A stretch of 64,000 bases of DNA from Eledone cirrhosa. Lineage: Eukaryota. Shown here one piece after another: positions 3,507 to 57,800 of the stretch. The stretch spans positions 52,266,001 to 52,330,000 of the forward strand of contig OZ024742.1 in NCBI GenBank assembly GCA_964016885.1, written 5' to 3'. The notes beneath the pieces are model-generated. The model had not been told where the DNA came from. It did not search any database and saw nothing but the letters and a program-made list of their open reading frames with translations. Made by a program: the position numbers and the translations under genes. The first letter of the stretch is position 1, and every line of letters starts with the position of its first letter.

Positions 3507-3722
3507 GAATGCCATGGTTGACGGAGGCTCGGCTCTGTAAGGTATAGTAATTTTTAACCGTTAAATCAATTGTAAATTGTTTAAAACTTGAACCAAATTG
3601 TTGATAAAGACACCCTCCTCCTCGTGAGAGGGGTCTTTCTGTCCGTTATTTGGCCCTTCGGGGTTAAATAACCAGTTATTGGGGTTTTGTACCCAAAATT
3701 TCATTTTAAACAGAAAAACAAC

Positions 3723-5830
3723 ATGGCTACGAAAAAGAAATTTCATACGTCACTCCCACTCATTCCGTCTTCTTCTTCCTCAATCATCACTACAGCAGAG
3801 AGAAGATTGTCTCTCTCCCTCCCTTCTTTAAATGTGTCTCTCTCCCTCCCTTCTCTTTCGCAAGTGACGAAAGAAAAAAAAAGTCTCGTGCAAAGCGTGC
3901 AAGGTTTCTCCACGACGACGACGACAGCGACGAAACAGGTGTGCGGGAAATACGAAAACCCAGTTCATTCGTCTGACGTCAGGAATAATAGCAGTAGCAG
4001 CCGTAATAACAACAGCAACAGTGACAATGAAAACAACAGTAGCAGCCGCAACAGCATCACCAGCAGCATAAACAACAACAGCATTAGCAGCAGCAACACC
4101 AACAACAACCACAGCAACAGCGGCGGAGGCAGTAGTCGTAGTACCTGCAGCTACAACAAAAGTACCAGCAGCTCTGACGACAACAACAAAAGCAGAGAAA
4201 AACCAATCTCATTTGCAGGTATTGCGAAAAACTTGGAAACAATCCTCATAACAAATGAGGAATTAGAGGAAGCGAAGAAGATGGTGACAAAGAACGGACA
4301 CCGAGCAATCTGCAAGGCAGCGGAAAAATTTTTCGAAACCCAAGAGCACTGTACGGTCACGTACCGTACAGTAAGTACAAAATCCCGTAGGGTGGAAAGA
4401 GCCACAGAGGCCCAAATACAAAAAGCCTTGGGGTCTGTGTGGCAGCGGAAAACGCACATCACCCGAGGCAAAAAATATGCCACCGTAGACGTACTTTTTG
4501 CCACACCCCAGGAGGCAAAGGCCCAATCAGTAGTGACCCTAAGGAGCGAGGAAATGGTGTTGGTGCCCTCCTACTGCGGGCAAAAAATTGTGAGGGTCAA
4601 TCTGACCCACGTCCCCCCCCCCCCCCCCCCGGAATGACCCCTTCTTGGCTGGCCACGTCTGTCCACGTCGGAATCGAGGACAAAACAACTGTACTGCAAG
4701 TACAGAAAAAAATAAGAGAAGATTGGGTCGGCTCCTCCATTGAGATGCTAATCCAAACCAACCAGGAGTGCATCGAAGCTATCCCGGATGTGATAGACTT
4801 CGATAACGGCATACAACTGCCCATAAGTGTTGAGGGAAAACGCCCGAAATGCTTTCGCTGTGGATCGAAGACTCACCTCAGGGCCTTCTGCAACGAGAAG
4901 ACCCTGAGAAAGGAGAAAACCCCCCTCCTTCCGAATCCGGCTCCACGGCTACCAGCAACAGGACAAGCGGCAACCAGAAACGATAGGTCCGTGGCACCCA
5001 TACCCACTCCACGGAAATCAAAAACAGCAGCAGCAGTGGAAATATTAACAACAACAACAGCAATACCAAATGCAGCTGCAACAGAGACTCCAGTGCAAAC
5101 ATCACCAACAACAACAAGTGAAAGAGTGGAGCTGGTACCCCTCCCCGACCTCACAGAATCAGACATGGAGTGTGAGGTGGGAGAGGGATGGCAAAAGGTC
5201 GCAAGAAGGCACAAACGCAGAAGCAGCGCATCGTCGCCTTTGAAAAGGGAGGAAAGAAATGAGAAAAGGGTAAAGTCTACTGCAAAGAGACCCACAGCAG
5301 CAAAACCACCAACACCATCACCACCCACACCAGCACCACCATCACCACCGGCGACAACCCCACCGCCAACAACACCTTCAACACCACCACCACAAGCACC
5401 AACATCGCAAACACAACAACAAAACACACACACCCAGCAACAACGACAAGAAAATAGCAGAACCACACCCCACCCCCAGAAAAACAAATGCACGGCAATA
5501 AACACACACAACAAGAAACTAATGACTTACATAATTGAACACACAGACATTTCACAACAGGACTACATAATACCAGCACCAATCAAAACGCCAACTAACA
5601 TAAGACTGCTAAAAATAGCACAGAAACAATACACAAACATTAAAACGAAATTCCCCAACGCAGTTGGTGATTTCAGGGACCTAGGAGGAACCATCAATCG
5701 AAGAGTATATTCAGACATTCTCTTAGAAGAGCCGACGACCAGCCGAAGGGACGATTCAACGGTCCCTTCACCAGACGATCAAGTGAAAAGGGATGTAAAA
5801 ACCATCCCTCCTCTACGAAAAGTACGGTAA
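3723..5830 (+). pseudogene. ORF1 type A (gag-like nucleic-acid-binding protein), frameshifted at an expanded C-run near 4613-4630
   Basis: MATKKKFHTSLP start, S/N-rich N-terminus, globular mid-domain, CX2CX4HX4C knuckle CFRCGSKTHLRAFC, Pro/Thr-rich linker, ends PPLRKVR*. Copy 5 reads through the C-run in frame. Confidence 0.88.
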
Positions 5831-5865
5831 GTGGTCTTTCCCATCTTTTCCACTCTATTTTAAAC

Positions 5866-8800
5866 ATGACCTCACTCAGAATAGGCAGCATAAATGCGCG
5901 TGGCTTGGGGTCGTCATGGAAGCAGGGTCACCTGCTCAACGCCCTCAGGTCACTAAACATAGATGTAGTGGCCATCAGCGAGACCAGAATCTCCGAAGCA
6001 CGGGCATTCGCACCGATCTTCGGCGGCTACGATGTGTACGCATCTCCCAGCCGTCCTGGATCGGGTGGAGGAGTTGCTGTGCTTTTTCGGAGAGGTTTGG
6101 ATCTCGCCATACGGGCCATCTTCCTGGACCCAGAGGGTAAGCTGGTGGTGCTGGACGTGACCAGCGGAGACGGGCAAGCTTTCAGGCTAGTGGCCGTCTA
6201 TGCCCCGACAGGAGCAGGGCGGCCTGATTTCTTCCGGCGTCTGGAGACCTTTCTTGGAACGTCCCGCTCTTTAGTGTTAGTGGGCGACTGGAACGGGATC
6301 TTAGATGCACGCTGGGACTGTGTGGGATTATCGGATAGGGGTGGAGGGTGCAATAGCCTCACCAACCTGCTCAGGCGTTTTGAACTGTCTGACAGGTACC
6401 GATTGGATTTCCCGAATGTGCCAATGTGGACTTGGACAAACCGCATAGGGTCATCCAGATCATATCTAGATAGAGTATTTTGTAGGGAAATAGATAGGTC
6501 TAGCATAGGCTGTCTACAATTCAAGATAGTCAGCTACACGGACCACAAATTCGTGACCTGTGTGCTTGACTTAGATAGGCTTCATAGACGAGGACCCGGC
6601 TACTGGAAGCTAAACGCGTCCTTACCAGCGCGCAAGGCCTACAGAGACCGGATTAGCGAACTAGTTAAGCGGGCGTTGACGGGGGCCATCGTCAACAACA
6701 AGTGGTGGTTTGCTCTGAAAAGAGCGATTAGAATAGAATCGATTAGGTTTAGTAAGGCTTTAGCAATAGAGAAAAATTGAGCAGAGGGAGAACTAGTTAG
6801 AAAATTAGACGAGGCGCTTAGCATAGGCATTGCAACCGACGTGCTTGCGGCGAAATTGGCCCTTGACCAATTCTTCAATGCAAAGCACGAAGGCTGCGTT
6901 GTCAGAGCTAGGGTGCGTGATCTCAGACACGAGGGGACGAAAGCCGTTCAATGGGCCCGAGTGGCGGAGGCGCGTCGTGGCAACAAAGCCACGATCCGGT
7001 CTTTGGTGGACCACGACGGGCGCATGCTACTCGATCCCGGGAAAATGTGTGAAGCTTTTCAGCGACACTTCGCTCAGCTGTTCGGGTGCAGCGGGGGGCC
7101 GGGTAGAGGGATGGACTTTAGTGTCTACCTCGACGGACTGCCGCGGCTCTCGGCCACTGAGGCGAAGTGTTGCGAAAAGCCGATAACAGCCGCTGAAGTA
7201 AGGGAGGCAATGACTGGCTGCACAAGGGGTAAATCGCCTGGTTTGGATGGTCTGCCCTATGAACTTTACGTACAGATGCCAGACTTGTTCGGAGGCCTCT
7301 TGGCGGACGTCTACTGCAACTGGCAACAGAACGGGAGAATTCCCAGTTCTGTGAGCCGAGGAGCGGTGGCACTGCTGAGAAAGGATCCGAACAAGGGGGA
7401 TAACATAGACAATTTCCGGCCCATAACTCTGCTAAACACAGAGTTCAAGATTTTGGCCAAGGTGCTAGCAAAGAGGTTGGCGCTTGTCGTTGGTGGTCTG
7501 GTGGGAGAGGCGCAGACATGCGCCATTCCCGACAGATCCATCCACGACAACCTCCACCTCATGCGATACATCATAGAGAGGGTAGCTAAGGAACCTGGCA
7601 CGGGTGGGTCCTTGATCAATTTAGATCAGTCGAAAGCTTTCGATAGGGTCGACCATCGTTACCTAGCGGCAGTCCTGAGAGCGGCTGGCTTTGGGCTCGT
7701 CTTCAGAGGCTGGATCGCTGCCATGCACAGCGACATCTGCTCTGTGGTGAGAGTGAACGGTCACCTGTCGGAACCGTTCAACATCATGCGCTCGGTCCGC
7801 CAAGGATGTCCCCTCTCGTCCCTCTTGTACGTATTGACTCTCGAGCCATTACTGCACAAACTGGAGACGTTGAGGGGAGTCCCGCGCGAACTAGGATGCG
7901 GAAGATCCGTGTCAGCATATGCGGACGATGTCACCGTAGTGGTGTCGAACGCCAAACACATCGAGGCGATCGGCACTACACTAAGAGAATACGAAGCGGT
8001 GACAGGAGCAATGATCAACCAGGAAAAGTCGGTGGGCCTGCAGCTCGGCACCTGGAGAGGCAGGTCCATGCCGTCCAACAGCGTCGTCGGGCGCTGGACG
8101 GACGGACCGGTTAAATTGCTAGGGGTCTGGTTCGGTCCGGACCTCCCGACGGACAAAAACTGGGACGAGGTGACGAGCAGGGTGGCTTCTCTCACCCAGA
8201 AATGGGCGGAGAGGAAGCTATCCCTGAAAGGTCGAGCGGAGGTGGCTAACGCGTACATCGCGTCTGTCATCTGCTACCGCCTAACCGTCGTACCTTGTCC
8301 TAAGCCTCGCCTGACTGCGCTGGAGCGTTTGCTCTTTCGCTTTTTGTGGAAGGGACGTGCTCCGATGGTCAGGCGGTCCATCTGTTGTCAACACCCGCTA
8401 CGTGGAGGGCTGGGCATGCCGTGGCTGATGATGCGCAGGCACGCGCTCAGGCTACGACATCTCCACCTCTTCCTCGACGGTGATCAGGTGTGGTCGTCGT
8501 TTGCTAGACGCGTTTTTCCCCAGCTCGTTTCCTTGACGGAGCTGCAGTCCTGGGTCAAGCGAAGACCGAGAGGGAGCGCCTGGAGACTGGAATGTCTTCA
8601 GGCGCTCACAGCCCTCGACCAATCGGGCAATGTGATCGGTGGAAACTCCACCTCGGCGTTCTATAGAGGATTAGTGGAGGGGAAGAGCGACGACGTACTT
8701 GGGGAAACTCTAGGCGTCGACGAAAATCAACTAGCCAATCTCTTCGGAAGAACTTTCGGGCCAGGGCCTATGGACAACTTCCAGAAATCTCTGGCCTGGC

Positions 8801-9285
8801 AGTACTACCGAGGAGCCTTGCCAGTTCGGGATAAACTCTACAGGCATGGAGGTGCCGTCAGCCGGGCATGTCCGAGATGCGCGCAGGGCGACGAAATTGT
8901 CCTGCAAGCACTCGTCCAGTGTCCGAAAATTGCTGACTTGTGGGTTTATGTCGAACACCTGCTGTCGCGTTTAGGACGGATCCGGCTATCATCTGAGTCC
9001 ATCGTGAGGATTGCCCCGCCCTCCTCCTTTAGCCGGGAAGGGCAGGCAGTTTTTATCTGCCTGGTGGCCATGGTGAAAGAGATAGTGTGGTGGACACGTT
9101 GGAAAGGGCTGAAGACGAGCACTTACCTCTTCGGTGATATCCTGATTAACTTTTTCAAATTTCATTTGAAAAGGAAAATCAGGGTAGAGAGGGAAGTGCT
9201 CTCTTCCCAGCATTTTGTTGAAAGATGGGTGAGAGAAGCAAGAATGGCCCGAGTGAATGGGCCTACTCTGAGTATATATCTGTAA
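5866..9285 (+). pseudogene. ORF2 (APE endonuclease - reverse transcriptase - zinc finger), ~1139 codons with one in-frame stop at 6778-6780
   Basis: ORFs 5866-6780 and 6841-9285 are in the same frame; the stop TGA is AGA in other copies. Motifs SINARGL, SET, GDWN, QGCPLS, YADD, LLGV and a degenerate CPRC..CP finger. Confidence 0.93.
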
Positions 9286-9533
9286 ATTAAAGGTGGAAAA
9301 CTGGGAGAGGGCACTTGCCTTGGTGGTCAGGGTCATTGTGGCTTTTTACTGGGCTTTCTCCACAAATGTTCCTCCGAAGTTTGCCCCCTATTGGGGAATT
9401 TTTCATTGTTATTTTTTGTTACATCCTCTGTTTTTGTTTTTTACACGCAGAAATGCCCATTTGTACCGTCCTGCATTGTCCTGCACTGTCCTTAATGTCT
9501 ACTTTATGTAAACCCTTGTGGTTAATAAAGAAA

Positions 9534-9589
<56 letters not shown>

Positions 9590-12500
9590 GGCGACCTACG
9601 TAGTAAATCGTATCATCGTAAGCTCCGCAAAGGTATGTTATTTTTAGTTGTTTAAAATTGCCATTTATGGAAATTTTTTTATTGTTAACTCTATATAAGT
9701 GCACATACATTGATTTCTGAAAAGGACACTCAAAAAGATTGGGGCCATGAGCCCAAAATTTGAATTTTTATAATTATCAAACAAAATAAATGTTGTTTGA
9801 AAAATCATGGCCGACTCAAAGTCACACCTTCCTCACAAACTAACACCACACGACGACACCACCATTGTAAATATGACTACGTTTGCCAACACTAAAAATA
9901 TAAGCAGTAGCAATATTTTAAATTTGTCTCAGGCAGACATCTATTTCCCGCCATTACCAATGACTGCAGGTGTTAAAGCCGCCACCCCCACCTCAACCAC
10001 AGCGACAACAGAAACAAAAGAAAGAAAAAAATTAACTCGTGATATCGAAATGAATTCAACCAAAATGAACTCTTCCACACCGAACACCACTGACGCCACC
10101 ACCACCACAACTGAAACTAAAATTAGCAATAACAAAAATAACGATAACAGCAACAATGAAATTAAGAAAACCACCCTGAGTTTTGCTAGAGTAGCAAAAC
10201 AGTGCGAAGCATTTCAGGTAACTCAGGAGGAATTAGAAGAAGACAAAAAAATGGTAAAGAAAGATGGGTACAGGGTCAGCCTCACCCCCCACCTAATAAA
10301 ATGGAGCATCGGCGCCAATGCACCGTGTCTTATCGAAAAATTAACATAAAATCTCGCCGAGTGGAACGGGCATCCGAGTCCCAAATCCAAAAAGCTTTGG
10401 GACATGTGTGGGCAAAAGAAACCCATATAAGACGTGGGCAGAAATATGGAACCGTGGACATGTTCTTTGAAACACGACAGGAGGCTAGAGAACACTCCAT
10501 GGCCCCATTAAGAAGTGACGACTTCACACTCGTCCCAAGCTATTGTGGCCACAGACTCGTAAAGATCAGGGTAATCCATGTTCCACCGGCCATCGAAATT
10601 CCCTGGCTAATAGCTACCGCCCACGCCGGCATCAAAGCCAACACCAAGATAATCGAAATAGCGACAGAAAAGCAGGAGAACTGGTCCGGATCTGGGATGG
10701 AGCTCCTGATTCAAGCGGACCCAAAAAGCATTGAGGTGATCCCAGGGGTAATAGACCTCACTGACGGTAGCCACCTCACCGTAATCGTCGAGGGTAGAAG
10801 GCCTACGTGTGTCGTTTGTGGTGAAGGAACCCACCTAAGGACTTTCTGCCCTCAGGCTAAAAGGTTGAGGCCACCTCTCTTACCCACCCCAGTGACTCAA
10901 CCATCAACGCCACCAGCAGCAAAGATGGCAGCAACAGCTGTAGCAGCAACAACAGAAGCAACTATAACAGCAACAACCGCAGCAACAGTAGCAAAACCAA
11001 CACCACCACCATCCAACGCTTCAGAACTAGCACCAGCGCCTACACCATCCACCACGCCACAACCAAAACTAACGCCTGTGGAGGATGTTCCACTCCCCGG
11101 CCTATCATAACTGGAGACAGATTGTGACGACGAGGAGTGGGAAACGGTATCAGGAAAAAAGAAAAAAAGAAACCAAAAAAGAAAAAATTATCTCCCCCCC
11201 CCCCCCAAACAAAATACAGAGGGAAACAAATAAACTATCAAACAAAAAGGTTAGGACAGATATGCCACCATCCACATCAGCATCACCACAAACACCAACA
11301 CCATCACCATCATTAACCCCAACACCACCATCACCATCACCACAAAAGTCACCAAAAAGCGAAACAGAAACAAAGCCACAACAAACGCAAACAAAACAAA
11401 ACAACCAAAACGATACACACTACACAGCATTAAATTTGAACAATAACCAATTATTACACTACATCCAACACAACACCAGCATCACAGAAAAAGACTACAC
11501 AACAACCCAAAAGTTGACACCACCTCCACACATACAAATCACTCGCATCACACAGAAAACGTACACGGCACAAAAGCAAAAAAATCCCCAAAGACATCGG
11601 AGACTTCCGACAAGCACTCTCCAGGAGGATTTATAAGGACATCCTTCCTGAGGAGGCCACAAGCAGTGAAAAGGATGGAAAAACCGTCCTTCCCCTACGA
11701 GAAGTAAGGTAAGTGGTCTTTCCCATCTTTTCCACTCCTTTCAACATGACCTCACTCAGAATAGGCAGCATAAATGCGCGTGGCTTGGGGTCGTCATGGA
11801 AGCAGGGTCACCTGCTCAACGACCACAGGTCACTAAACATAGATGTAGTGGCCATCAGCGAGACCAGAATCTCCGAAGCACGTGCCTTCGCCTTCATAGA
11901 CGAGGACCCGTCCACTGGAAGCTAAACGCGTCCTTACCAGCGCGCAAGGCCTACAGAGACCGGATCAGCGAACTAGTTAAGCGGGCGTTGACGGAGGCCA
12001 CCGTCAACAACAAGTGGTGGTTTGCTCTGAAAATAGCGATTAGAATAGAGTCCATTAGATTTAGTAAGGCATTAACAATAGAGAAAAATAGAGCAGAGGG
12101 AGAATTAGTTGGAAAATTAGACGAGGCGCTTAGCAAAGTCATCACGACCGATTCTTCAATGCAAAGCACGAAGGCTGCGTTGTCAGAGCTAGGGTGCGTG
12201 CTCTGATACACGAGGGGACGAAAGCCATTCAATGGGCCCGAGTGGCGGAGGCTCGTCGTGGCAACAAAGCCACGATCTGGTCTTTGGTGGACCACGACGG
12301 TCGCATGCTACTCGATCCCGGGCAAATGTGTGAAGCTTTCCAGCGACACTTCGCCCAGCTGTTCGGGGGCAGCGGCAGGCCAAATTGAGGGATGGACTTT
12401 AGTGCCTACCTCGATGGACTGCCGCGGCTCTCGGCCACTGAGGCGAAGTGTTGCGAAGGTGGAAAACTGGGAGAGGGCACTTGCCTTGGTGGTCAGGGTC

Positions 12501-12728: not shown

Positions 12729-15700
12729 GGCCGCACATGTGTGAAGACAGTACAAATCTGCGGGGGAAAAGGTTCGTAACTTTAAGCTGTTTTAAAGTGT
12801 CATTTTTTGTATTTTCTTGTCGTTAACGAAACTTAAGGTACACATCTTGATTTAAAGAGAGGGATACCTCTCAATATTCGGGCTTTAAGCCCGAATATTC
12901 AGATTTATTTTTAAAAACTTCGAAAAAAATCACTTCCTCACCAAAAGAAACTTATGGAAATGTTCGACCGTGAAACGGTAAACAACGTTCAGGTCAAAAG
13001 TTTAACAGCAGCCACTGTAGATTTCACCACGACTACGACGGCTACAGTCATGCCTGTCATCCACTCTACTGAATGTGAAGGCAAAACTCAACCTTCTGTG
13101 ATAGCAGCAGTATCATCTGAAAACGACATCACCACCACCGCCACCACCACCACCACAACAACAACAACTCAGAGCAATAACGACAATAACACCAACAGCT
13201 TCAATGTAAACAAGGATGGCGGTGGCAACACCAATAACAACAGCAAGAATGACAACAACAACAATAAGAGCATCAGAAACACCACATTTGCTGCAGCAGC
13301 AGCAAAAACAAAGCGCTTATTGAATATTGATATTGATATTAGCGATAAAGACGAACAGTTGGCCAATGCGTGGAGGCTAATTAAACGGGAGAAGTCCTGG
13401 GCAAACCTGACCATCCCGGACGCGGCAATAGCGGCCATGCAAAGGAGGACGGTGTTCTTTCGATGTATTTCGGTGCAGACACGAAAAGTGGAACTTGCGA
13501 GCCAAGCAGAGGTAGAGGCTGCTTTGGAGTACATCGGAATTAACATAGAGTACAAAGCAAGAGGCAAACAGTTCGGTACCATCTCGGTACTGTTCAAAAC
13601 CGAGGCCCTCGCTATTAAGCACTCGGTGACCCCCTGCAGAACGGAACGCATTATCATGCATCCATCCTATATGGGTAAAAGGACATTGAAGGTACGCATT
13701 CCCAGTATCCCACCAGGAATGAACATATGGTGGCTGCTGGGATGCGTAATCGAGGAGGGGACAGACACTACTCTCCTGGACATCAAAAGGACAGAGAGAG
13801 AGGACTGGTCCGGAATGGATTTGGAGATTCTTCTCCAAATGAAACCGGAGGATATGAATAACATCCCGGATTTTGCCCGCCTGCAGGACGGGACAACAAT
13901 CCAACTAATGATTGACGGAAGAAGGCCACGCTGCTTCGTCTACGGGGAAGCAACGCATCTTCAAGCCTTCTACCCTCAGCGCAAAAATGCAGGGGGTCGC
14001 AAACCTCCTTTGTTGCCAACGCCAGTGTAAGCACGGAAAGCTGCACCACCACCACCACCAAAAACAACATCAACAAAAACACGGACACCAACATCAAAAG
14101 CAGCCGGATCACCACCAACACCAAAACCAATCCAAGGAGAAAACGAGGAAAGCTCCCCCCAAAAAATTATACACATAGACAAAACAATAAACGCACACAC
14201 AGACACAGAGACACTCACAGACACAGACCCTTTATCTTCCAGCAGCGAAGATGAAGGAAAACCCAAAAGTGCAAAAAAACAGAAAACTCACAAAAAAAAA
14301 AAGCCCCAACAAAACACAAAAACACACACAACAAAAAATACAGACACCACTAACGCAAACACTTCCCCAATAACATCATCACCAACAGCAACATCGACAC
14401 CACCTCCACAATCCCCGAAACGCAAACAACCTAAACAAACACAAGTACAAATAAACACACAAATACCTGAAATTTCAGACACCACACCTACAACAAACAT
14501 AGACATACCCGAAACAACACCACCAAAACCATCGCCACCACCTTCATCAAAACGAAAACAAATAAAACCACACCAACAAAATGTTAAAAACTTCGTGCTT
14601 GTCAGAAGGGCCAACGATAAACTGATGGCCCACTTAGCGCGAAGCGAGGACATTCAAACAGAGGGGGAGATTTTTGAAATCAGCACATTTTGCGTGCTAG
14701 AAGATTTGCTTCTGGTCCGAATGTCACTCAATTCCTTCAAAGAAATTCGAGAGAGCTTTCCTCAAGACGTGGGAACCCCGAATGTGAAACCCACATCAAG
14801 ACTTTTAAAGGGGTTCCCAAAAGAAACCCCACCAACCATGGAGGTCGAACCACCCGACCTTCACAAGACCCGGGAGGTAAGTAAACCTTCCCTCTCTCTC
14901 TCTTAGCTTACCAATATGGCCATATTAAGAGTAGGAAGTTTAGATGTTCGCGGCCTGGGGTCACCCTGGAAGGAGGGTCGCCTGCTCAACGACTTCCGGT
15001 CGCTGGAAATGGATGTAATTGCCGTAAGCGAGACCAGAATTTCCGACACGCGCGCACTAGCCCCCATTTTCGACGACTATCAGATCTTCGCATCTGTTAG
15101 CAGGCCGGGAATGGGAGGTGGGGTGGCAGTGCTGTTTAGGAAAGGACTGGAACTCGAGGTAAGGTCGATCTTCCGGGACCCGGAAGTTGGTGGTCTTGGA
15201 TGTGAGCAGTAGCGAAGGTGGTGCCTTTAGAATGCTGGCCGTCTACGCCCCTACAGGGGCCGGACGACCTGACTCATTTAGGCGCCTGGAGACCTTTCTG
15301 GGTACGTCTCGCCCTTTACTGTTAGCGGGGGACTGGAATGGCATCTTAGACGCACGCTGGGATTGTGTGGGAGTAGCCGATAGGAGCGGGGGGTGCAAAA
15401 GCCTCAAGGACCTACTCAGACAGTTCAAATTGTCTGACAGGTATCGACTAGATTTCCCCAATGTGCCAGTAAGGATATGGACCAACCGAATGGGGGTCAT
15501 CTAGATCGTATATAGACAGGATCTTTATTAGGAAAATAGATAGAAATAGTCTGGGCTGTCCACTTTTTAAAACGGTCGCCTATTCAGATCACAAATGTGT
15601 GATCTGTACGGTCGACCTAAATAAAACGCGTAGGTTAGGACCGGGTTATTGGAAGCTAAACATGTCATTTCCGGCACGTAAGGCTTACAGGGACCGAGTC

Positions 15701-18634: not shown

Positions 18635-21600
18635 GAATGCTATGGTTGACGGAGGCTCGGCTCTGTAAGGTATTGTAAATTTTGAACGCTATAACAATTG
18701 TAAATTGTTTAAAACTGTAACGAACTTGTAGACAAAAACACCCTTCTCCTCGTGAGAGGGGTCTTTCTGCCCGTTATTTGGCATATCGGGGTTAAATAAC
18801 TGCTTATTGGGGTTTTGTGCCCAATATTTATTTTAAACAAAAAAAACAACATGGCTACGAAAAAGAATTTTCATAGGTCACTCCCACTCATCCCGTCTTC
18901 TTCTTCCTCAATCACTACAGCAGAGAGAAGATTGGCTCTCTCCCTCCCGTCTTTAAATGTGTCTCTTTCCCTCCTTTCTCTTTCGCAAGCGACGACAAAA
19001 AAGAAAAGTCTCGTGCAAAGCGTGCAAGACTTCTCGACGACGACGACGACAACGACGAAACAGGTGTGCGGGAAATACGAAAACCCATTTCATTCGTCTG
19101 ACTTCGGGAATAATAGCAGTATCAGCCGTAATAACAACAGCAACAGTGACAATGAAAACAACAGTAGCAGCCGAAACAGCATCACCAGCAGCATAAACAA
19201 CAACAGCATTAGAAGCAGCAACACCAACAACAACCACAGCAACAGCGGCGGAGGCAGTAGTCGTAGTACCTGCAGCAACAACAAAAGTAACAGCAGCTCT
19301 GACGACAACAACAACAGCAGCAAAGAAAAACCAATCTCATTTGCAGGTATTGCGAAAAACTTGGAAACAATCCTCATAACAAATGAGGAATTAGAGGAAG
19401 CGAAGAAGATGGTGACAAAGACTGGACATCGAGCAATCTGCAAGGCAGCGGAAAAATTTTTCGAAACCCAACAGCACTGTACGGTCACGTACCGTACAGT
19501 AAGTACAAAATCCAGTAGGGTGGAAAGAGCCACAGAGGCTCAAATACAAAAAGCCTTGGGGTCTGTGTGGCAGCGGAAAACGCACATCACCAGAGGCAAA
19601 AAATATGCCACCGTAGACGTACTTTTTGCCACACACCAGGAGGCAAAGGCTCAATCCGTAGTAACCCTAAGGACCGAGAAAATGGTGTTGGTGCCCTCCT
19701 ACTGCGGGCAAAAAATTGTGAGGGTCAAACTGACCCACGTCCCCCCCGGGATGGCCCCTTCTTGGCTGGCCTGGTCTGTCCTCGTCGGAATCGAGGACAA
19801 AACAACTGTACTGCAAGTACAGAAATAAGTAAGAGAAGATTGGGTCGGCACCTCTATTGAGATGCTAATCCAAACCAACCAGGAGTGCATCGAAGCTATC
19901 CCGGATGTGATATACTTCGATAACGGCACTCAACTGCCCATACGTGTTGAGGGAAAACGCCCGAAATGCTTTCGCTGTGGATCGAAGACTCACCTCAGGG
20001 CCTTCTGCAACGAAAAGACCCTGAGAAAGGAGAAAACCCCCCTCCTTCCGAAACCGGCTCCACGGCTACCAGCAACAGGACAAGCGGCAACCAGGAACGA
20101 TAGGTCCGTGGCACCCATACCGACGCCACGGAAATCAAAAACAGCAGCAGCAGTGGAAATATTAACAACAACAACAGCAATACCAAATGCAGCTGCAACA
20201 GAGACTCCAGTGCAAACATCACCAATAACAACAAGTGAAAGAGTGGAGCTGGTACCCCTTCCCGACCTCACAGAATCAGACATGGAGTATGAGGTGGGAG
20301 AGGGATGGCAAAAGGTTGTAAGAAGGCACAAACGCAGAAGCAGCGCATCGTCGCCTTTGAAAAGGGAGGAAAGAAATGAGAAAAGGGTAAAGTCTACTGC
20401 AAAGAGACCCACAGCAGCAACACCACCAACACCATCATCACCCACACTAGCACCACCATCACCACCGGCGACAACCCCACCGCCAACAACACCTTCAACA
20501 CCACCACCACAAGCACCAACATCGCAAACACAACAACAAAACACTCACACCCAGCAACAACGACAAGAAAATAGCAGAACCACACCCCACCCCCAGAAAA
20601 ACAAATGCACGGCAATAAATACACACAACAAGAAACTAATGACTTACATAATTGAACACAGACATTTCACAACACGACTACATAATACCAGCACCAATCA
20701 AAACTCCAACTAACATAAGACTGCTAAAAATAGCACAGAAACAATACACAAACATTAAAACGAAATTGCCCAACGCAGTTGGTGATTTCAGGGACCTAGG
20801 AGGAACTATCAATCGAAGAGTATATTCAGACATTCTCATAGAAGAGCCGATGACCAGTCGAAGGGACGATTCAACGATCCCTTCACCAGACGATCAAGTG
20901 AAAAGGGATGTAAAAACCATCCCTCCTCTACGAAAAGTACGGTAAGTGGTCTTTCCCATCTTTTCCACTCTATTTTAAACATGACCTCACTCAGAATAGG
21001 CAGCATAAATGCGCGTGGCTTGGGGTCGTCATGGAAGCAGGGTCACTTGCTCAACGACCTCAGGTCACTAAACATAGATGTAGTGGCCATCAGCGAGACC
21101 AGAATCTCCGATGCACGGGCCTTCGCACCGATCTTCGGCGGCTACCATGTGTACGCATCTCCCAGCCGTCCTGGATCGGGGGGAAGAGATGCTGTGCTTT
21201 TTCGGAGAGGTTTGGATCTCGCCATACGGGCCATCTTCCTGGACCCAGAGGGTAAGCTGGTGGTGCTGGACGTGACCAGCGGAGACGGGCAAGCTTTCAG
21301 GCTACTGGCCGTCTATGCCCCGACAGGAGCAGGGCGGCCTGATTTCTTCCGGCGTCTGGAGACCTTTCTTGGAACGTCCCGCTCTTTAGTGTTAGTGGGC
21401 GACTGGAACGGGATCTTAGATGCACGCTGGAACTGTGTGGGATTAGCGGATAGGGAAGGAGGGTGCAAGAGCCTCACCAACCTGCTCAGGCGTTTTGAAC
21501 TGTCTGACAGGTACCGATTGGATTTCCCGAATGTGCCAATGTGGACTTGGACAAACCGCATAGGGTCATCCAGATCATATCTAGATAGAGTATTTTGTAG

Positions 21601-24656: not shown

Positions 24657-24843
24657 TGGATTGGCAGTATCGGTAGAGAGTCGGACACCATGCTTTGAAG
24701 CATAGAGTTACGTCCCGTTATGATCTGAGTTCAAATCCCGCCGAGGTTAACTTTGCCCTTCATCCTTACGGGGTCGATAAAATAAAGTACCACTAATGCA
24801 CTGGATAATTGCTGGCCTTGTGCCAAAATAGAAACAATTATTA
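24657..24843 (+). mobile_element. tRNA-derived SINE (first few bases missing)
   Basis: A-box TGGCAGTATCGG, B-box GAGTTCAAATCCC, central GCCCTTCATCCTTACGGGGTCGATAAAATAAAGTACC, ATT-type tail; five related copies in the window. Confidence 0.85.
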
Positions 24844-44809: not shown

Positions 44810-47800
44810 TTGCCCCGCGACTGGAGTGGTCAGACCTCCCGAGGCTGCAGTGGCAGAAAACCTACCAGCATCAGCGACAATGACAAAACCACTATCTCCA
44901 CCACCAACAGCGCTAACAAGACTAATGAAGAGCATGCATGCCCATTCCTGATATCGCTAAATCGGACAGGGAGTGTGATGACGTTGAAAAGTGGAAAACC
45001 ATCGTAGCGAAAGAAAAAAGAAAGAACTCCCTATCTTCGACTCCCCCCCCCCCAAAAAAAAAGAGGAAAAAATAAAAATATAAAAACGTGAACGACACCA
45101 CCGCCATCACCATCAACAGCCACACCTCTACAACCACCTACTCCATCACCACCACCACCACCACCATCGTCACCTCCAGCAACACCACAGCATACACAGA
45201 AAGCACCAACATTCCAAAAGCAGACACAATACATTGCTACAGACATAGTCAACACAAAGCTTTTAAATTACATTCAACACCACACCAACATCACAGAAAC
45301 AAACTACGTACAAACCACCAAAATTGCACCTCCCAAACGCATAAAAATAATTGAAATCTCTCAAAAGAATTACACAATATTAAAGGAAAATTTCCCAGCG
45401 GTAATTCGAGACTATAGAGGGAACCTCACCAAAAGAATTTATTCTGACATTCTCGTGGAGAAATCCACCACTGGTCGGATGTATGGATCACCCACACCCT
45501 TCCTAAAAAAGCCAAAAGTATTTTTTTTTAAAACTTTTCCCCTCTTATTTGTTTTCCTCCTATCTTAACCAACATGGCTTCTCTCAGCATAGGCAGTATA
45601 AATGGACGTGGCCCGGGGTCGTGTTGGAAGCAGAGCCACCTGCTCGGCGATCTTAGGTCGCTAAACATGGTGGCAATCAGCGAGACTAGAATCTCCAAGA
45701 CACGGGCATCACAACCATTTTCTGCGGCTACGAGGAGAACACATCTCTATGCCGTCTCGGATATGGGGGAGGAGTGGCTGTGTTGCTCCGGAGAAGTGTG
45801 GATTTCGAGATAGGGCCATCTTCTTGTACCCAGAAGGTAAGTTGATGGTGCTAGACGTTACCAGCGCAGACAGGCAAGCTTTCAGGCTAGTGGCCGTCTA
45901 TACCCCAACAGCGGCAGGACGGCCTGACTTTTTCAGGTGCCTGGAGATCTTTCTGGGAACGTCCCGTTCTTTAGTGTTAGTGGGCGACTGGAATGGGATC
46001 TTGGATGCTCGCTGGGACTGTGTGGGATTGGTAGATAGGGGAGGAAGGTGTACAATCCTCGCAAACCTGTTCAGACGTGCTCAACTTTCTGATAGGTATC
46101 ATCTGGATTTTCTGAATGTGCCATTCTGGACATGGACAAACTGCATCGGGTCATCCACATCGTATCTAGATAGGGTATTTTGTAGGGAAATAGATAGGTT
46201 TAGCAGAGGCTGTCCACAATTCAAGATAGTCGACTACACAGACCAAAATTTCCTGCTCTTTGTGGTCGACTTAGATAGGCTTTATAGACAGGGTCTCGGC
46301 TACTAGCATCTAAACGTGTAATTGATAGCGTGCAAAGCTTACAGAGACCGGATTAGCGATCTAGTTAAGCGAGAGTCATCAACAACAAATGGTGGTTCGC
46401 CCTGAAAAAAGCAATTAGAATAGAGTCCATTAGGTTTAGTAAGGCGTTAGCAATAGAGAAAAATAGAGCAGAATGAGAACTAGTAAAGGCATCGCGACCG
46501 AAATTGACTGAAGCACGGGAAGCAATGACTGACTGCATGATAGGTAAATCGCCTTGTTTGGATGGTCTGCCCAACGAGCTTTACGTACACATGCCAGGCT
46601 TGTTCGGCGATATCTTAGCGGGTGTCTACGCCAACTGGCATCAGAACGGGAGACTTCCCAGGTCTGTGAGGCGAGGGCAGCAGTGCTGCTGAGAAAAGAC
46701 GCAAACAAAGGGGACCATATAGACAATTTCAGGCCCATAACTCTGTTAAACGCAGAGTTTAAGATTTAGGCCAAAGTATTGGCAATGAGGTTGGCGCTTG
46801 TCGTCTGTGATCTGGTAGGAGAGGCGCAAACATGCGCCATTCCAGACAAGTCCATCCACGACGACCTCCACCTAATGCGATACATCATAGAGAGAGTGGT
46901 TAAGGAAACTGCCACGGGTGGGGCTCTGATTAATTTAGATCAATCAAAGGCCTTCGATAGTGCCAACCATCACTACCTTGCGGACGTACTCAAAGCAGCA
47001 GCCTTTGAACACGTTTTCAGGAGTTGGATCGCAGCAATGCACAGCGACATCTGCTCTGTGGTTAGGTAAACAGTCACCTTTCGGAAACATTCAACATCAT
47101 GCACTCGTTTCGCCAGGGTTGTCCCAGATCATCCCTTCTGTATGTATTGGCCCATGAGCCATTACTACACAAATTGGAGACTTTGAGGGGCATCCTGTGC
47201 AAACTAGGATATGGGAAAACCGTGTAAGCATATGCCGACAACGTCACCATAGCAGTGTCGAACATGAAATACATTGAGATGATCGGCACCACTGTCAGGA
47301 TTTACGAAGCGGTAACAAGAGCAAATATCAACCAGGAGAAGTCGGTGGGCCTGCAGCTCGTCACGTGGAGAGGCATTTACATGCCGTCTAACAGTGTTGT
47401 CGGGCGCTGGACAGACGGAGCGGTTAAATTAATGGGACGCGGTAGGGTTTAAGATGGCTTCCTTTTAACAGAATTTGCCACGAGGGGACTATCTTTGAAA
47501 GACGCGCCAGAGGTGGCGAACACGTTCATCGCGTCGGTCATCTACTACCACCTTGCCGGTGTGCCTTGTCCTAATTCTCACCTGGCTGCACTGGGCGTCT
47601 GCTCTTTCGCTTTTTGTGAAAGGGACGCGCTCCAATATGAAGAGGTCCATCTGCTTTCAACACCCGCTACGTGGATGGTGGGGCATGCCGTAGCTGATGA
47701 TGTGCAAACATATGCTGAGGCTGTGACCACTCCGTCTCTTCCTTGACAATGAACAGGTATGGCTAGACACCTTTTTTCCCCAGCTCATCTCCTTGACAGA

Positions 47801-49009: not shown

Positions 49010-52000
49010 AATAATAATTGTTATTATTATCATTATTATTGTTCTTTGAGTCTCAGTCATTGATGTTGGTTAACTGTAAAGTTTGTTGAAATGAATATCA
49101 AGCCACTACCTGCAGCCTCAGATATTCAGGACGTATCGGAGGCTTCTTGCTGTTCCCAGCAAGCATGCTTTTGAAGTGTTCCAAAAAGCGGGGCGGGGCC
49201 AATTTTCTTTAACCATCCCTGGAAACTTTTTGAGATAGTACTTAGTGCGCCTATGACAATCGGGACCACTTTGACTTCATGGAAGTTCCAAATCCGTTTT
49301 ACCTTCCACTTTAAGTCCTGGTATCGGTTAATTTTCTCCCTCTCCTTCTCTTGCACTCTCGTGTCGAATGGGCAGGCCACATCTACAATCAGGCACGATC
49401 TTTTTTCCTTGTCCAAAACCAACAGGTCAGGTCTATTGTGTTCCAGTAACTTATCCGTCTGTATCCTAAAATCCCACAGCACCTTCACCTGATCGTTTTC
49501 TATCATCGACTCTGGCTTATGCTCATACCACTTCTCAGAATGTGGTAAATTGTTTACTTTGCACAGGTGCCAGTGGATCACCCTGCCCATCACATCATGT
49601 CTCCAGCCTTTATAGTGAGTCTGGGCTAGGTGTTTACACTCGGATAAAATGTGAGCCACAGTCTCCTCTCTCTCTCCACCACAGATCCTGCACAGTGGGC
49701 TAACCTCCTCCTTGTAAATATGGTGTTTCAGCCACTTCGTTTTGGGGTCTCCTCTTTTCAACCAGTTCCATGTCTGTGGATCTCTGAATTCAGTTTTCTC
49801 AAAGAAGGTATTATGAAGGGATTTTTCATGAAGGTTGCTCTTCCTCCTTGTTGTTATTTCCTCCTTGGACATCCCCTGGTCTATTGTCCTCTCCTTCAGT
49901 ACAATTCTGAGCATTGGCTCCCTACTAGCAGTCACGTATTTGTGTAGGTTGTTTATCTCCATCTGAACACAGTCCTCTATGCTGATAAGACCTCTTCCAC
50001 CTTCAGATCTCCTTAAGTAGAGTCTATCGACATCACTCCTCTTGTGGAACATGTTGTAGATAGTCAATGGCTTCCTAGTCTTCCTATCCATTTATTTTTG
50101 TTCAGCAACATTCCATCTCAGAATTCCCGCACTGTACCTAATAATAGACACATCTCGGGAATGTACTGCACTTATGTCATTCCTACTGTTCAATGTGATT
50201 TTAATATGCTCCTTACTCTCCGAATGTATTCAGATCTTATCGATTCCTTCATTTTTTGGTTCTTGATGTCATCAGCCTCCAGAACACCCAAATACTTGTA
50301 TCCTTCTTCAGTGTCAATTTCCTTTATCATCTCACCTGTTGGTACCTGGATTTCGTTGCTTCTGCTCAATTTACCCCTCTTCATCACAAGGACTCCACAC
50401 TTACTAATACCAAATTGCATACATATATCATTCCTGAAAATGCGTAGAGTGGCAACAAGCACATCCAACTCCATCTCACTCTTCCTGAAGAACTTAAGAT
50501 CGTCCATGAAGAGGAGGTGGTTGATGGTAAGCTCTCCCTTTCCCAACTTGTATCCTGCTCTCACTTTTCACAGTATAATGGTCAGGGGCATCAGGGCAAG
50601 GACAAACAACAGAGGGGACAGACAATCTCCCTGGAAGATACCTCTCTTGATCTTCATGCCTCCCAAGGATTCTCCAGCTGATGTTAACTCTGTTTTCCAG
50701 GACTTAATATTTTGCTCAACAACTGTCTGATGTTATCTGAAACCTTGAAGATCTCTAAGCTTTGCATGGTGCAAGAATGAGGCACCGTGTCAAATGCCTT
50801 TTTGTAGTCTATCCATCCCATGGCAAGACCAGTGTGTCTCCTCTTGCAATTCTTTCGGCATCCTTTCTGTTCGTCCGGTAACAAGGTGTTTGTGTGGAGG
50901 TGATGGTAGATTTCCTCAGACACAATGCTTGTAAACAGTTTCCACATTACAGACAGACATGTGATAAGTCTATAGTTGGTAACATCATTACCCTTGATTC
51001 GGACTTTCATTACCAGAACTGTGGTACATTTTGTTAACCACTCTGGTACCTCACCTGACATCAAGCAGTCATTGAACATGGTTGTCAGTTTCGGGTGGAG
51101 GGATGTTATATTTTTAATCCAATACCCCTGCACACCATCTGGGCCTAGTGATTTCCAGTTGGTTAGTCTTTTGGCCTGCCCCTTAAGAGTTTCAACTGTG
51201 ATACTCAAATCAGTTTGTTGGTGTGCCTGTTCACTAGTCTCCTTTTGTACTGTCTCAATCCACCCTGCCTGGGCATTGTGTCTAACATCCTGCTCCCATA
51301 TTCCTCTGCAGAATGTTTTAGCTTGTTCCGCCCCAGGGACCAAGTCGTTGCCTCTTTCTTTCCCCTCAAGCTGTCCAAACAGCATCTTCTGGTTGTTGTC
51401 GAACATGCGGTTCTGTTTATACTGACTGACTCTGTTCTCGTATCGCCTGATTTTTGCACTCTTTGCTACAATGCGTTGCTTCAATTCCTCTATGATAATA
51501 TTTAGCTTTTTACTCCTAGTTTTGTATTTTATTTCCAGTCTATTTTTAGTGCCTTTGTTTTTTAGTGTCCCATTCAGTAGGGACTCAAGCTTTCCAATGT
51601 CATTTCTCATTTCCCTGATTTGACCATTTAGTCGTTTCTTCCACCAAGGTTCTGATCTTTCTTGTTTGTTGTTTCCTCTCGCTTTTATGCCAAATAATTT
51701 TTTAGTTAAAAGTTTAGGATAGCAACCAAATCTTGTCCTAGCCCGTAAGCATTCATTTCCTCAATGGGCGTATCTTGGTTCCAGGTATTATTTATTTCAG
51801 CATTCAGATCATTGTTTGCTTCGGATGCTTCCTCCGTTCTCTCAACCTCTTCACCTTCATTTCCCACTGGCTCGTTTGCCTGGCATACTCCACTCTCCAT
51901 TTCCAACCTATTCTCTCTGCTCAGTTCCTCCAGTTCCAGCTCGCTTATCCACCCATTAGTTCTTATTACCCGAGTCTGCTCGGCCAATTTTTGTTCATCT

Positions 52001-52549
52001 AATTTAAATAGACCAATCTCGTTCCAGATGTTATGCATCCGTTTCCTATAGCCTTTTTCCTTGGGGTTTCTCTTTAGGTAACATTGCATAACAGTTCTAT
52101 TCAATTCTTTCGTCCAGTTGTTTCTGGTCCCTTTCCTTCTTCTTCCTCCGACACCAGCAGTATTTGGATGAAAGCCAGGTCTCTGCTGCTGGGTCAGGGA
52201 GCACCTGCTGGGTGAGAGTCTGTCACATGACATTCCAGTCTCCACTTCACCGTTATTCGAACTGTTTAGGTTCGACATTTAAGCACTCTTATCGAGGATT
52301 GGTGAATTTATGGTTACAAAACTACCGGTGATTTCATCACCCCCAGTGATTTCATCACGCCCAGTGATTTCATCCCCCCCCCCCCCCGTTGATTTTAGCG
52401 TGGCACCGTCACGCTGTAGACTAACATAAATAAACAAACAAACAAATAGATAAAAAGCCAAAAAAAAACCAAAACAACAAAAACAAACACAAGTTTCATT
52501 GTAATGTTTGAATGTCTGACTTAGCCTTTCCTTTTTCTCTCTCCCTTTT
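49010..52549 (-). mobile_element. R4/Dong-clade non-LTR retrotransposon (RT + CCHC + restriction-like endonuclease), degenerate
   Basis: ORF pieces 52278-49126: N-terminal WTKELN..GYRKRMHNIW..EQKLAEQ, GPDG, IDYKKAFD, QGDCLSP, HLLFMDD, YKYLG, CRIC..HILSEC, RHD, RPD..IVDVACP..K..Y. (TAA)n-like repeats flank both ends on its own strand. Confidence 0.88.
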
Positions 52550-52564
52550 ATTATTATTATTATT

Positions 52565-53356
52565 GGCGACCTACGTAGTCAATCGTATCGTGAGCTCCGC
52601 AAAGGTTTGTTATTTTCAGTTGTTTAAAATTGCCATTTATGGAAAATTTTTTATTGTTAACTCTATATAAGTGCACATACATTGATTTCTGAAAAGGACA
52701 CTCAAAAAGATTGGGGCCATGAGCCCAAAATTTAAATTTTTATAATTATCAAACAAAATAAATGTTGTTTGAAAAATTATGGCCGATTCAAAGTCACACC
52801 TTCCTCACAAACTAACACCTCACACCGACACCACCATTGTAAATATTACTACGTTTGCCAACACTAAAAATATAAGCAGTAGCAATATTTTAAATTTGTC
52901 TCAGGCAGACATTCATTTGCCGCCATTACCAATGACTGCAGGTGTTAAAGCCGCCACCCCCACCACCACCACAGCGACAACAGAAACAAAAGAAAAAAAT
53001 AAATTAACTCGTGATATCGAAATGAATTCAACCAAAATGAACTCTTCCACACCGAACACCACTGACGCCACGACCACCACAACTGAAACTAAAATTAGCA
53101 ATAACAAAAATAACGATGACAACAACAGCAACAATGAAATTAAGAAAACTAGCCTGTCTTTTGCGAGAGTAGCAAAAACGTGCGAAGCGTTCCAGGTAAC
53201 TCAGGAGGAATTAGAAGAAGCCAAAAGAATGGTAAAGAAAGATGGGTACAGGGTCACCCCCCCCCCCCCCCCACACACACACACACCTAATAAAATGGAG
53301 CATCGGCGCCTATGCACCGTGTCGTATCGAACAATAAATGTAGAATCGCGCCGATG
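52565..53356 (+). mobile_element. Tx1 copy 7, type B, 5'UTR and first part of ORF1 only
   Basis: GGCGACCTACGTAG after (ATT)n; MADSKSHLPHKL at 52779; homology to copy 3 stops at ...AATCGCGCCGA. Confidence 0.88.
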
Positions 53357-53357
53357 T

Positions 53358-54829: not shown

Positions 54830-54887
<58 letters not shown>

Positions 54888-57800
54888 GGCGACCTACGTA
54901 GTAAATCGTATCATCGTGAGCTCCGCAAAGGTTTGTTATTTCCGTTTGTTAAAAATTGCAATTTATGGAAAATTTTTATTGTTAACTATATATAAGCGCA
55001 CATACATTGTTTTCCGAAAAGGACACCCAAAAAGATTGGGACCTTGTGCCCAAAATTTAAACTTTTATGATAATCAAAAAGTTTCTTTGAAAAAAAATGG
55101 CTAATTCACCTCTGCACCAAGCAGCTGAAAGCCTTCCTCACAAATTAACACCTCACACCGACACCACCATTGTAAATGATACTACGTTTGCCAACACAAA
55201 CAATTTAAGCACTAGCAATATTTTAAATTTGTCTCAGGCAGACATTCATTTCCCGCCATTACCAATGACTACAGGTGTTAAAGCCGCCACCACCACCACC
55301 ACCGCGACAACCACCACCTCCACCACCACCGCGACAGCAGAAATAAAAGGAAAAAATAAATCAACTCGTGATGTCGAAATATTTTCAACCAAAATGGACT
55401 CTTCCAAACCGAACTCCACTGACGTCACCACCACCACAACTGAAACTAAAATTAATAATAACAAAAATAACGATAGCAACAACAACAACAATGACATTAA
55501 AAAAACCACCCTGAGTTTTGCCAGAGTAGCAAAACAGTGCGAAGCATTTACGGTAACTCAGGAGGAATTAGAAAATGCGAAAAAAATGGTAAAGAAAGAT
55601 GGGTACAGGGTCAGCCTCACCCCCCCCCCCCCCACACACACACACCTAATAAAATGGAGCATCGGCGCCTATGCACCGTGTCGTATCGAACAATAAATGT
55701 AAAATCGCGCCGAGTGGAACGGGCATCCGAGTCCCAAATCCAAAAAGCTTTGGGACATGTGTGGGCAAGAAAAACCCACATCAGACGTGGGCAGAGTATG
55801 GAACCGTGGACGTGTTCTTTGAAACACCAGAGGAGGCTAGAGAACACTCCATGACCACATTAAGAAGTGACGACTTCACACTCGTCCCAAGCTATTGTGG
55901 CCAGAGACTCGTAAAGATCAGGGTGACCCACGTTCCACCGGCCATCGAAATTCACTGGCTAATAGCGGCCGTCCTCGCCGGCCTCGAAGCCAACACAAAG
56001 ATAATAGCAATAGCAAAAGAAAAGCAGGAGAACTGGTCCGGATCTGGGATGGAGCTCCTGATTCAAGCGGAAGCAAAAAGCATTGAGGAGATCCCAGAGG
56101 TAATAGATCTCACTGACGGCAGCCACCTCACCGTAATCGTCGAGGGCAGAAGGCCTACGTGTGTCGTTTGTGGTGAAGGAACCCACCTAAGGACTTTCTG
56201 CCCTCAGGCTAAAAGGTTGAGGCCACCTCTCTTACCCACCACAGTGACTCAACCATCAACGCCACCAGCAGCAAAGATGGCAGCAACAGTTGTAGCAGCA
56301 ACAACAGAAGCAACTATAACAGCAACAACCGCAGCAACAGTAGCAAAACCAACACCACCACCACCAGAAAAACCAACACCACCACCACCCAACGCTTCAG
56401 AACTAGCACCAGCGCCTACACCATCCACCACCCCACAACCAAAACTAACGCCTGTGGAGGATTTTCCACTCCCCGGCCTATCACAACTGGAGACAGATTG
56501 TGACGACGAGGAGTGGGAAACGGTATCAGGAAAAAAAAAAGAAACCAAAAAAGAAAAAAATTCTCTTCCTTCCTCCTCCAAAAACAAAATACAGAGGGAA
56601 ACAAATAAATTAACAAACAAAAAAGTTAGGACAGATATGCCACCATCCACACCAGCATCACCAATCCCATCACCCCAAACACCAACACCATCATTAACCC
56701 AACACCACCATCACCTACACCACAAAAGTCACCTAAATGCGAAACAGAAACAAAACCACAACAAACGCAAACAAAACATAACAACCAAAACGATACACAC
56801 TACACAGCATTAAATTTGAACAACAAGCAATTATTACACTACATCCAACACAACACCAGCATCACAGAAAAAGACTACACAACAACCCCAAAATTCACAC
56901 CACCTCCACACATACAAATCACTCGCATCACACAGAAAACGTACATGACACTAAAACAAAAATTCCCCAAAGACATCGGAGACTTCGACAAGCACTCTCC
57001 AGGAGGATTTATAAGGACATCCTTCCTGAGGAGGCCACAAGCAGTGAAAAGGATGGAGAAACCGTCCTTCCTCTACGAGAAGTAAGGTAAGTGGTCTTTC
57101 CCATCTTTTCCACTCCTTTTCAACATGACCTCACTCAGAATAGGCAGCATAAATGCGCGTGGCTTGGGGTCGTCACGGAAGCAGGGTCACCTGCTCAACG
57201 ACCTCAGGTCACTAAACATAGATGTAGTGGCCATTAGCGAGACCAGAATCTCAGAAGCACGGGCCTTCGTACCGATCTTCGGCGGCTACGATGTGTACAC
57301 ATCTCCCAGCCGTCCGGGATCGGGGGGAAGAGTTGCTGTGCTATTTCGGAGAGGCTTGGATCTTGCCATACGGGCCATCTTCCTGGACCTAGAAGGTAAG
57401 TTGGTGGTGCTGGACGTGACCAGCGGAGACGGGCAAGCTTTCAGGTTAGTGGCCGTCTATGCCCCGACAGGAGCAGGGCGGCCTGATTTCTTCCGGCGTC
57501 TAGAGACTTTCCTTGGAACGTCTCGCTCTTTAGTGTTAGAGTGCGACTGGAACGGGATCTTAGATGCAATCTTGGATTGTGTGGGATTAGTGGATAGGGA
57601 AGGAGTGTGCAAGAGTCTCACCAACCTGCTCAGGCGTTTTGAACTGTCTGGCAGGTACCGATTGGATTTCCCGAATGTACCAATGTGGACTTGGACAAAT
57701 CGCATAGGGTCATCCAGATCATATCTAGATAGTGTATTTTGTAGGGAAATAGATAGGTCTAGCATAGGCTGTCCACAATCCAAGATAGTCAGCTACACGG

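Follow-up and report, generated by a model that had tools for sequence, protein, structure and literature searches.

A 64,000-nt stretch of the Eledone cirrhosa genome (contig OZ024742.1; hereafter the window, with positions counted from its first letter and features on the plus strand unless stated otherwise) carries long interspersed nuclear elements (LINEs) of about 6 kb, arranged in head-to-tail arrays with (ATT)n between them. At the end of their first open reading frame (ORF1) these elements possess a motif corresponding to the U2-type 5' splice-site consensus, and the conservation of this donor at the ORF1 stop exceeds chance. A 3' splice site conserved independently of coding was not found in the lineages compared, the first AG downstream shifting its position and phase from one lineage to another. 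As the donor is conserved without a conserved acceptor, binding of the U1 small nuclear ribonucleoprotein (U1 snRNP) fits better than a fixed intron. The first-pass annotation of the window had proposed a cryptic small intron at the ORF1/ORF2 boundary, removal of which fuses the two frames; the 5' splice-site half of this intron is retained in 16 lineages and in three phases, whereas the in-frame acceptor half is seen in 5 of 15. The annotation had thus caught a real and apparently undescribed signal, but paired it with the wrong partner.

Conservation of the donor motif at the end of ORF1

In the full-length type A element (3507..9535, flanked by (ATT)n tracts), ORF1 (3723..5830) ends with an Arg codon and a stop codon at the donor, and the motif ACG|GTAAGT (5824..5832, GT at 5827) overlaps this stop. 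It is followed by a pyrimidine-rich inter-ORF spacer (5833..5865), which ends in the ORF2 initiation context, and by the CTCAG proposed as acceptor (5875..5879), which coincides with codons 4 and 5 (Leu-Arg) of the ORF2 endonuclease (EN). The second type A boundary lies at 20939..20994. The first type B boundary (11706..11759), AAG|GTAAGT in phase 2, is a 51-nt variant, and the second one (57084..57138) has the common form with the usual 52-nt spacer. The type C boundary (14874..14918) contains GAG|GTAAGT in phase 0, the ORF1 stop TAG at 14904-14906 and the ORF2 AUG at 14916. Reexamination of the annotated sites confirmed GTAAGT at 5827, 20942, 11709, 57087 and 14877, the spacer lengths of 53, 53, 51, 52 and 30 nt, as well as the in-frame fusion of ORF1 to ORF2 upon removal of these segments on paper (5827-5879 in type A) at 5/5 sites. 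The supposition that three divergent families agree in this respect had to be reduced, since A and B EN are 98% identical and donor and acceptor are common to both, so that there are two frame coincidences, not three. In type D (45510..45587) the pyrimidine tract and the CTCAG ending at 45587 are kept, as annotated, but the donor of this copy has decayed to AAAA|GTATTT; CAG|GTAA(T/A)T occurs in 4/7 other fetched D copies (those with the EN-start motif in which the frame could be called or the donor was clear). Type C does exist, but as a minority subfamily, accounting by eye for ~17 among 100 matches listed of 738; its commoner sister C2 (~77 among the same 100, also by eye) has a phase-1 donor and no AG ahead of the ORF2 AUG.

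Further lineages were found via patterns anchored on the ORF2 start alone (from which 100 out of 998 and 100 out of 107 matches were listed), and 52 distinct boundaries were scored from fetched representatives. For the comparison of 16 lineages (A, B, C, C', C2, D, E, E-old, E2, F, G, H, I, J, K and L) one representative of each was chosen by hand, and the best GT upstream of the AUG was scored against MAG|GTRAGT; visibly decayed copies and two pattern matches with neither a donor nor an upstream ORF1 domain (L082 and L092) were left out. The match at the ORF1 end was 9/9 in six lineages, 8/9 in eight and 7/9 in two, whereas within the coding bodies 3 of 253 windows of equal length score at least 8 of 9. 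The motif occurs there as GTAAGT, GTAGGT, GTATGT or GTAATT, and in lineage L the GTATGT variant contains no stop codon. Columns -1 to +3 are invariant (the anchor itself fixes +1 and +2), the conservation of the flanking columns is ~0.4-0.6, and EN identity falls to 54-63% between intact-looking lineages. The donor is in phase 2 in A, B, D, F, G, H, I and L, in phase 1 in E, E-old, E2, C', C2 and K, and in phase 0 in C (the phase of some frameshifted D, H and I copies was set by the homologous ORF1 tail, automatic calls having disagreed). Being present in three ORF1 phases, the motif is conserved as nucleotides and is no codon artefact. The lineage tree, distorted by frameshifted copies, was used for coarse grouping only.

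The ORF1 homologs outside this genome (21 matches, one repetitive false match removed) were compared as proteins only, and 9/20 end in G, GK, GKS, GR or similar. A phase-1 G|GT AAG donor would translate to G/GK/GR-type ends, so these homologs fit the presence of the donor. The named members of the set belong to Octopus and Argonauta, and one homolog continues through a C2-like spacer translation. Three Octopus gene models (P0006, P0016 and P0024) consist of pieces of the EN or ORF1 of the LINE fused to unrelated sequence, e.g., in a tectonic-3-like model, which are possibly exonisation or annotation artefacts. The departure of P0024 from its relatives near the G-K position was discounted as evidence for the donor, since a gene predictor would choose such a site anyway.

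Acceptor, reading frame and the search for spliced copies

The frame was determined for the first AG at least 20 nt downstream of the donor in 15 lineages (J was omitted, its phase being unclear). Splicing to this AG would keep the frame in A, B, C, F and K (5/15; P ~0.6 at 1/3) but not in C', C2, D, E, E-old, E2, G, H, I and L (10/15); in-frame agreement is at chance level, and the joint conservation of donor and acceptor phase that a fusion intron calls for was not found in this set. In D, E, E2 and C2 it is a second AG that preserves the frame. In G, H and I, where the EN Arg is replaced by Gln or Lys, the first in-frame AG appears only at EN codon 28, and splicing to it would cost the endonuclease the Asn that aligns with L1 EN residue 14, a catalytic-site residue. 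The acceptor AG disappears wherever this Arg is changed to Lys or Gln. The Ile-Gly and Gly-Ser codons near Leu-Arg supply AGs in both other useful phases, and hence an in-frame AG is nearly always present from coding alone; the frame agreement seen in A, B, C and F is, in our reading, incidental to the AG dinucleotides that the L-R-I-G-S codons contain. Splicing to the first AG would remove the ORF1 stop in A, B and F, and the out-of-frame products end after 1-25 residues in most lineages. A donor, a pyrimidine tract and an AG 41-66 nt downstream are found in every lineage of this comparison, and the inter-ORF spacer is 71-82% pyrimidine in 16/16 lineages.

The ORF2 AUG has A at -3 in 16/16 lineages and G at +4 in 13/16. 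It falls within the proposed intron in most lineages, so that splicing would delete it. With the first AG out of frame in two thirds of the lineages, G, H and I lacking a usable in-frame one, and the AUG context kept, a fusion of ORF1, EN and reverse transcriptase (RT) found no support as a mechanism of the whole family, and the loss of both acceptor and frame in related families counts against it on the annotation's own terms. Without splicing, ORF2 stands in register 0, 1 or 2 relative to ORF1, varying by lineage, and general readthrough, which had been considered for type C, or a fixed frameshift from ORF1 to ORF2 was rejected for this reason.

Precise intronless copies, proposed by the annotation as a check, numbered 0 against 3,278 intact A/B boundaries matching a tight pattern in the genome (upper 95% bound 0.09%). 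When gaps of 0-30 nt were searched, the only match was a 30-nt deletion with the donor kept. Of the sequences that continue with a base other than G, the 69 behind the A/B exon end all proved to be point changes or deletions, 30/30 of those matching the E pattern were point changes or unrelated sequence, and the single match to the second-AG junction was a point mutant, no spliced copy being found in any of these sets. The search covered the A/B and E exon ends, with second exons starting with a base other than G and the second-AG junction, and for lineages C, D and F-L the matches listed. According to PMC5860796, a LINE protein preferentially copies the RNA that encoded it (cis-preference), and spliced insertions comprise ~1.8% in human L1. 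If cis-preference is assumed for this clade, a fusion RNA should have left intronless copies. The 73 non-G continuations after a donor-like site in the A 5' untranslated region (UTR) likewise contained no spliced copy, and the family consequently offers no internal positive control for spliced insertions.

No fused ORF1-EN protein was detected among 11 longer EN matches (judged by length and Pfam, five sequences being read) or in a search for longer ORF1 proteins, both of which were weak searches. In four contig sets of unrecorded type aligned to 4700-9535, none of the 15 joints listed of 44 starts at the donor, and contigs of two sets (X6 and X5), also of unrecorded type, span the boundary without a joint among those listed; both observations are uninformative either way.

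Possible roles of the donor

The explanation which we tentatively prefer is that U1 snRNP binds the donor at the ORF1 stop on mostly unspliced RNA and guards the ORF2 part from premature cleavage and polyadenylation, ORF2 being translated by reinitiation at its own AUG. Judging from the consensus match, U1 snRNP would recognize the motif; the two-gene RNA would remain mostly unspliced, productive splicing being rare or lacking, if the absence of intronless copies is interpreted under cis-preference. By analogy with the Arabidopsis element EVD, bound U1 would then protect the ORF2 part: the element conserved in EVD is the donor at the Gag/Pol border, where U1 binding prevents premature termination of the full-length RNA, and mutations of the donor's match to U1 lead to termination at a cryptic poly(A) site (PMC5580714). 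Reinitiation at the ORF2 AUG would parallel that proposed for L1 (PMC5972666).

Donor-like sites are also present at the 5' ends of the elements. In type A a weaker one, AAG|GTATAG (3539..3547), lies 35 nt into the 5' UTR, with similar sites at 9633 (B) and 12772 (C); in most lineages such a site is situated 23-45 nt from the 5' end. Several of them have GTAAGT without a mismatch, whereas A, B and C show a weaker form and E has no such site. These sites are consistent with a general use of U1 sites by the family. In the arrays the 5'-end motif (window 3542, 9633 and 12772; copies L056, L057, L060, L063 and L064) is found 50-120 nt past the AATAAA of the upstream element, where it might promote read-through.

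Several points weigh against U1 protection. Its basis is sequence and analogy drawn from genomic data. The 16 lineages are related and do not represent 16 independent trials, and K, L and J are each known from one decayed copy. The target of the suppression is not obvious: AATAAA downstream of the donor is absent from A/B ORF2 in three copies (two were found in C), and canonical hexamers mostly lie upstream of the donor, in the A-rich ORF1. The CTAAC-like branch motif in G and D, together with the pyrimidine tract, resembles 3' intron signals and favours real splicing. Finally, an unspliced 5' splice site can retain mRNA in the nucleus, according to PMC9074902.

It is possible, if doubtful, that the short intron at the ORF1/ORF2 border is truly spliced and acts as an expression switch, yielding an ORF1-only RNA in most lineages and an ORF1-EN-RT fusion where the phase allows (A, B and F); a non-LTR element (one without long terminal repeats, LTRs) would then follow a splicing strategy resembling that of retroviruses or copia, with the spliced RNA somehow kept from reinsertion. 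A switch of the EVD type (PMC5580714), in which an intron of approximately 41-66 nt is spliced in part of the RNA, the ORF2 AUG is removed and coupled early polyadenylation produces an ORF1-only RNA, appears unlikely in our opinion, although it finds support in the donor, pyrimidine tract and AG common to every lineage of the frame comparison and in the early ends of most out-of-frame products. With such a switch the frame would be irrelevant, and an RNA providing no ORF2 protein and lacking the 3' tail would not give rise to intronless copies in the genome, in line with the searches, so that the pyrimidine tract, the free phase and the absence of intronless copies are explained equally well as by U1 protection. 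But ORF1 of the LINEs has its own stop in the unspliced RNA and, unlike in EVD, needs no splicing to create one; moreover, splicing to the first AG removes this stop in A, B and F, the acceptor position tracks the protein sequence, and no poly(A) hexamer occurs early in ORF2 of A or B. Splicing over a long range, from the donor to a 3' UTR acceptor with removal of the whole ORF2, is known in comparable style from Drosophila copia. It would leave the donor phase free, and a U-rich tract with CAG (9430..9450 in type A), acceptor-like in A, B and D only, precedes AATAAA by ~75 nt in these types. This AG is missing in E and C, and a universal 3' UTR acceptor was rejected on these grounds; although the spliced RNA would retain the 3' tail, no joined copy was present among the 69 A/B and 30 E-pattern continuations, and we regard such splicing as very improbable.

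The polyprotein model of the first-pass annotation, with a spliced RNA encoding ORF1, EN and RT in one chain, gains from the frame being kept at the first AG of A, B, C, F and K and at a second AG of D, E, E2 and C2, and from the A and B join, which retains a hydrophobic residue at the EN Leu position. Against this stand the chance-level 5/15, the codon-28 acceptor in H, I and G (G alone being ~70 among 100 listed of 107), beyond the Asn aligned with L1 EN residue 14, the maintained AUG context, and the 0 intronless copies versus 3,278 intact boundaries, though cis-preference would make a fusion RNA the preferred template; that no fused protein turned up is weak evidence in the same direction. 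Altogether we find the polyprotein improbable. Retention of the motif for a reason other than splicing, as a DNA-level factor site or as a stem-loop aiding ORF2 reinitiation, is rather unlikely. It has a counterpart in human L1, which retains a donor because that donor lies in a RUNX3 site (PMC5860796), and stems covering the motif are more stable than those of shuffled spacers in E, E-old, E2, F and G (0, 0, 7, 2 and 5 of 200 shuffles being as stable), with an antisense copy of the donor in E. Such stems fail against shuffles in 11/16 lineages, A and B included, and a universal hairpin over the donor was accordingly rejected; the tolerated variants and the conserved exon-side AG, for their part, follow the 5' splice-site consensus. 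Scarcely credible is the action of chance and shared ancestry, with stop codons in a purine-rich context imitating a donor: TAA does sit inside the motif in the phase-2 lineages, and the lineages are related, but the motif persists in three phases, and also in a form without a stop codon, next to flanks that cannot be aligned.

The near-perfect antisense copy of the donor in the E lineages (L033, L036-L040) is located 7 nt downstream of it and forms a stem of 9-10 bp, and matching changes are seen in E2. The antisense copy presumably resembles the U1 5' end.

Element structure, arrays and comparison with known systems

ORF2 of type A (5866..9285), which starts with its own AUG and A at -3, encodes an N-terminal apurinic/apyrimidinic (APE) endonuclease (Pfam Exo_endo_phos), RT (RVT_1) and a C-terminal zinc motif (zf-RVT), i.e., the domain set of L1/Tx1-like elements, and the closest relatives of its endonuclease with solved structures are L1 EN, that of human L1 being the best. 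The ORF1 translation displays a putative CCHC knuckle motif, such as Tx1-type ORF1 has, and a C-terminal domain common to octopod homologs; Pfam zf-CCHC was sub-threshold in 3/3 ORF1 homologs and absent from the window ORF1 fragment. The RT matches are mostly unnamed, the ORF1 and RT homologs with names coming from Octopus and Argonauta, which points to an octopod as the probable host. By their domain content the elements are classed as L1/Tx1-like non-LTR LINEs. The family is young and abundant, as 40/40 scored matches of the A boundary round to 100% identity and 3,278 A/B boundaries are intact. In the type A copy itself ORF1 is interrupted where the frame shifts close to the C run (4613-4630), and ORF2 has a premature stop, TGA at 6778-6780, which is copy-specific since contigs of three runs show another letter there. 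This element ends with AATAAA and an (ATT)18 tail (9524..9589).

Type A looks recombinant (window 5770-5830), with an E-like ORF1 and a B-like ORF1 tail and spacer joined at the donor position of E, and one copy (L127) is an intermediate of this arrangement. Through internal deletions (11891-11892) the first B copy has lost ~570 nt from the EN region as well as the greater part of RT, both ends being kept. LINEs of different lineages follow one another head-to-tail in the same orientation (window 3507-24656 and 52548-60810; copies L054, L064, L066 and L071), each beginning directly after the (ATT)n tail of the preceding element or of a short repeat; this layout suggests targeting of (ATT)n, the family's own tails included. 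The short repeat with an ATT tail, which often adjoins the LINEs (window 24657-24800 and 60811-61040; L052, L056 and L060), is possibly a short interspersed nuclear element sharing their tail and target. An unrelated RT-coding element occupies 49126-51760 on the minus strand, opposite to the LINEs.

LINE RNA must be full-length and unspliced for copying, and splice signals are thus usually viewed as harmful to the element. A donor kept across a LINE radiation at the sole non-coding spot between the genes implies employment of the host U1 or splicing machinery, hitherto shown for LTR elements, and would provide a compact handle on the balance of ORF1 and ORF2 proteins and on avoidance of premature termination. 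With thousands of copies (the A/B boundaries alone exceeding three thousand), these donors may also supply chimeric exons to host genes. The literature searched, which did not extend to most subscription journals, yielded no account of a donor conserved between ORF1 and ORF2 in any LINE.

The Eledone elements share with LINEs of the L1/Tx1 clade the two ORFs, APE-RT-zinc ORF2 and short inter-ORF spacer, the putative CCHC knuckle of ORF1 being a further likeness, and they adjoin a microsatellite, as some Tx1 families do according to PMC4494074; their tail and flanking repeat differ in being (ATT)n. As in L1 and SART1, for which termination-reinitiation is considered, the ORF2 AUG follows soon after the ORF1 stop, but the overlapping stop-start of SART1 is not present in the Eledone LINEs, and their spacer is shorter than the 63 nt of L1 (PMC5972666). 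Human L1 resembles them as a LINE retaining a rarely used donor. That donor shares its place in the 5' UTR with a RUNX3 site and gives rise to spliced integrated retrotransposed elements (SpIREs) at the frequency given above (PMC5860796); in the Eledone LINEs the donor stands at the ORF1 stop, with no spliced insertion found against the 3,278 intact boundaries, and precisely spliced genomic copies of the SpIRE type were not found among the A/B, E and A 5' UTR continuations examined. A parallel in layout is EVD, a Ty1/copia element, which likewise has a conserved donor between structural and catalytic genes, where the donor outweighs the acceptor, and in which the blocking of premature termination by U1 has been shown, the same being proposed here for the LINEs. 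EVD differs in being an LTR element whose single Gag-Pol frame acquires the Gag stop through splicing, which has been demonstrated (PMC5580714), whereas ORF1 of the LINEs has a stop of its own and their boundary is known from genomic sequence. The element type is already known, and the conserved donor at its ORF border would be an apparently undescribed form of U1-linked control.

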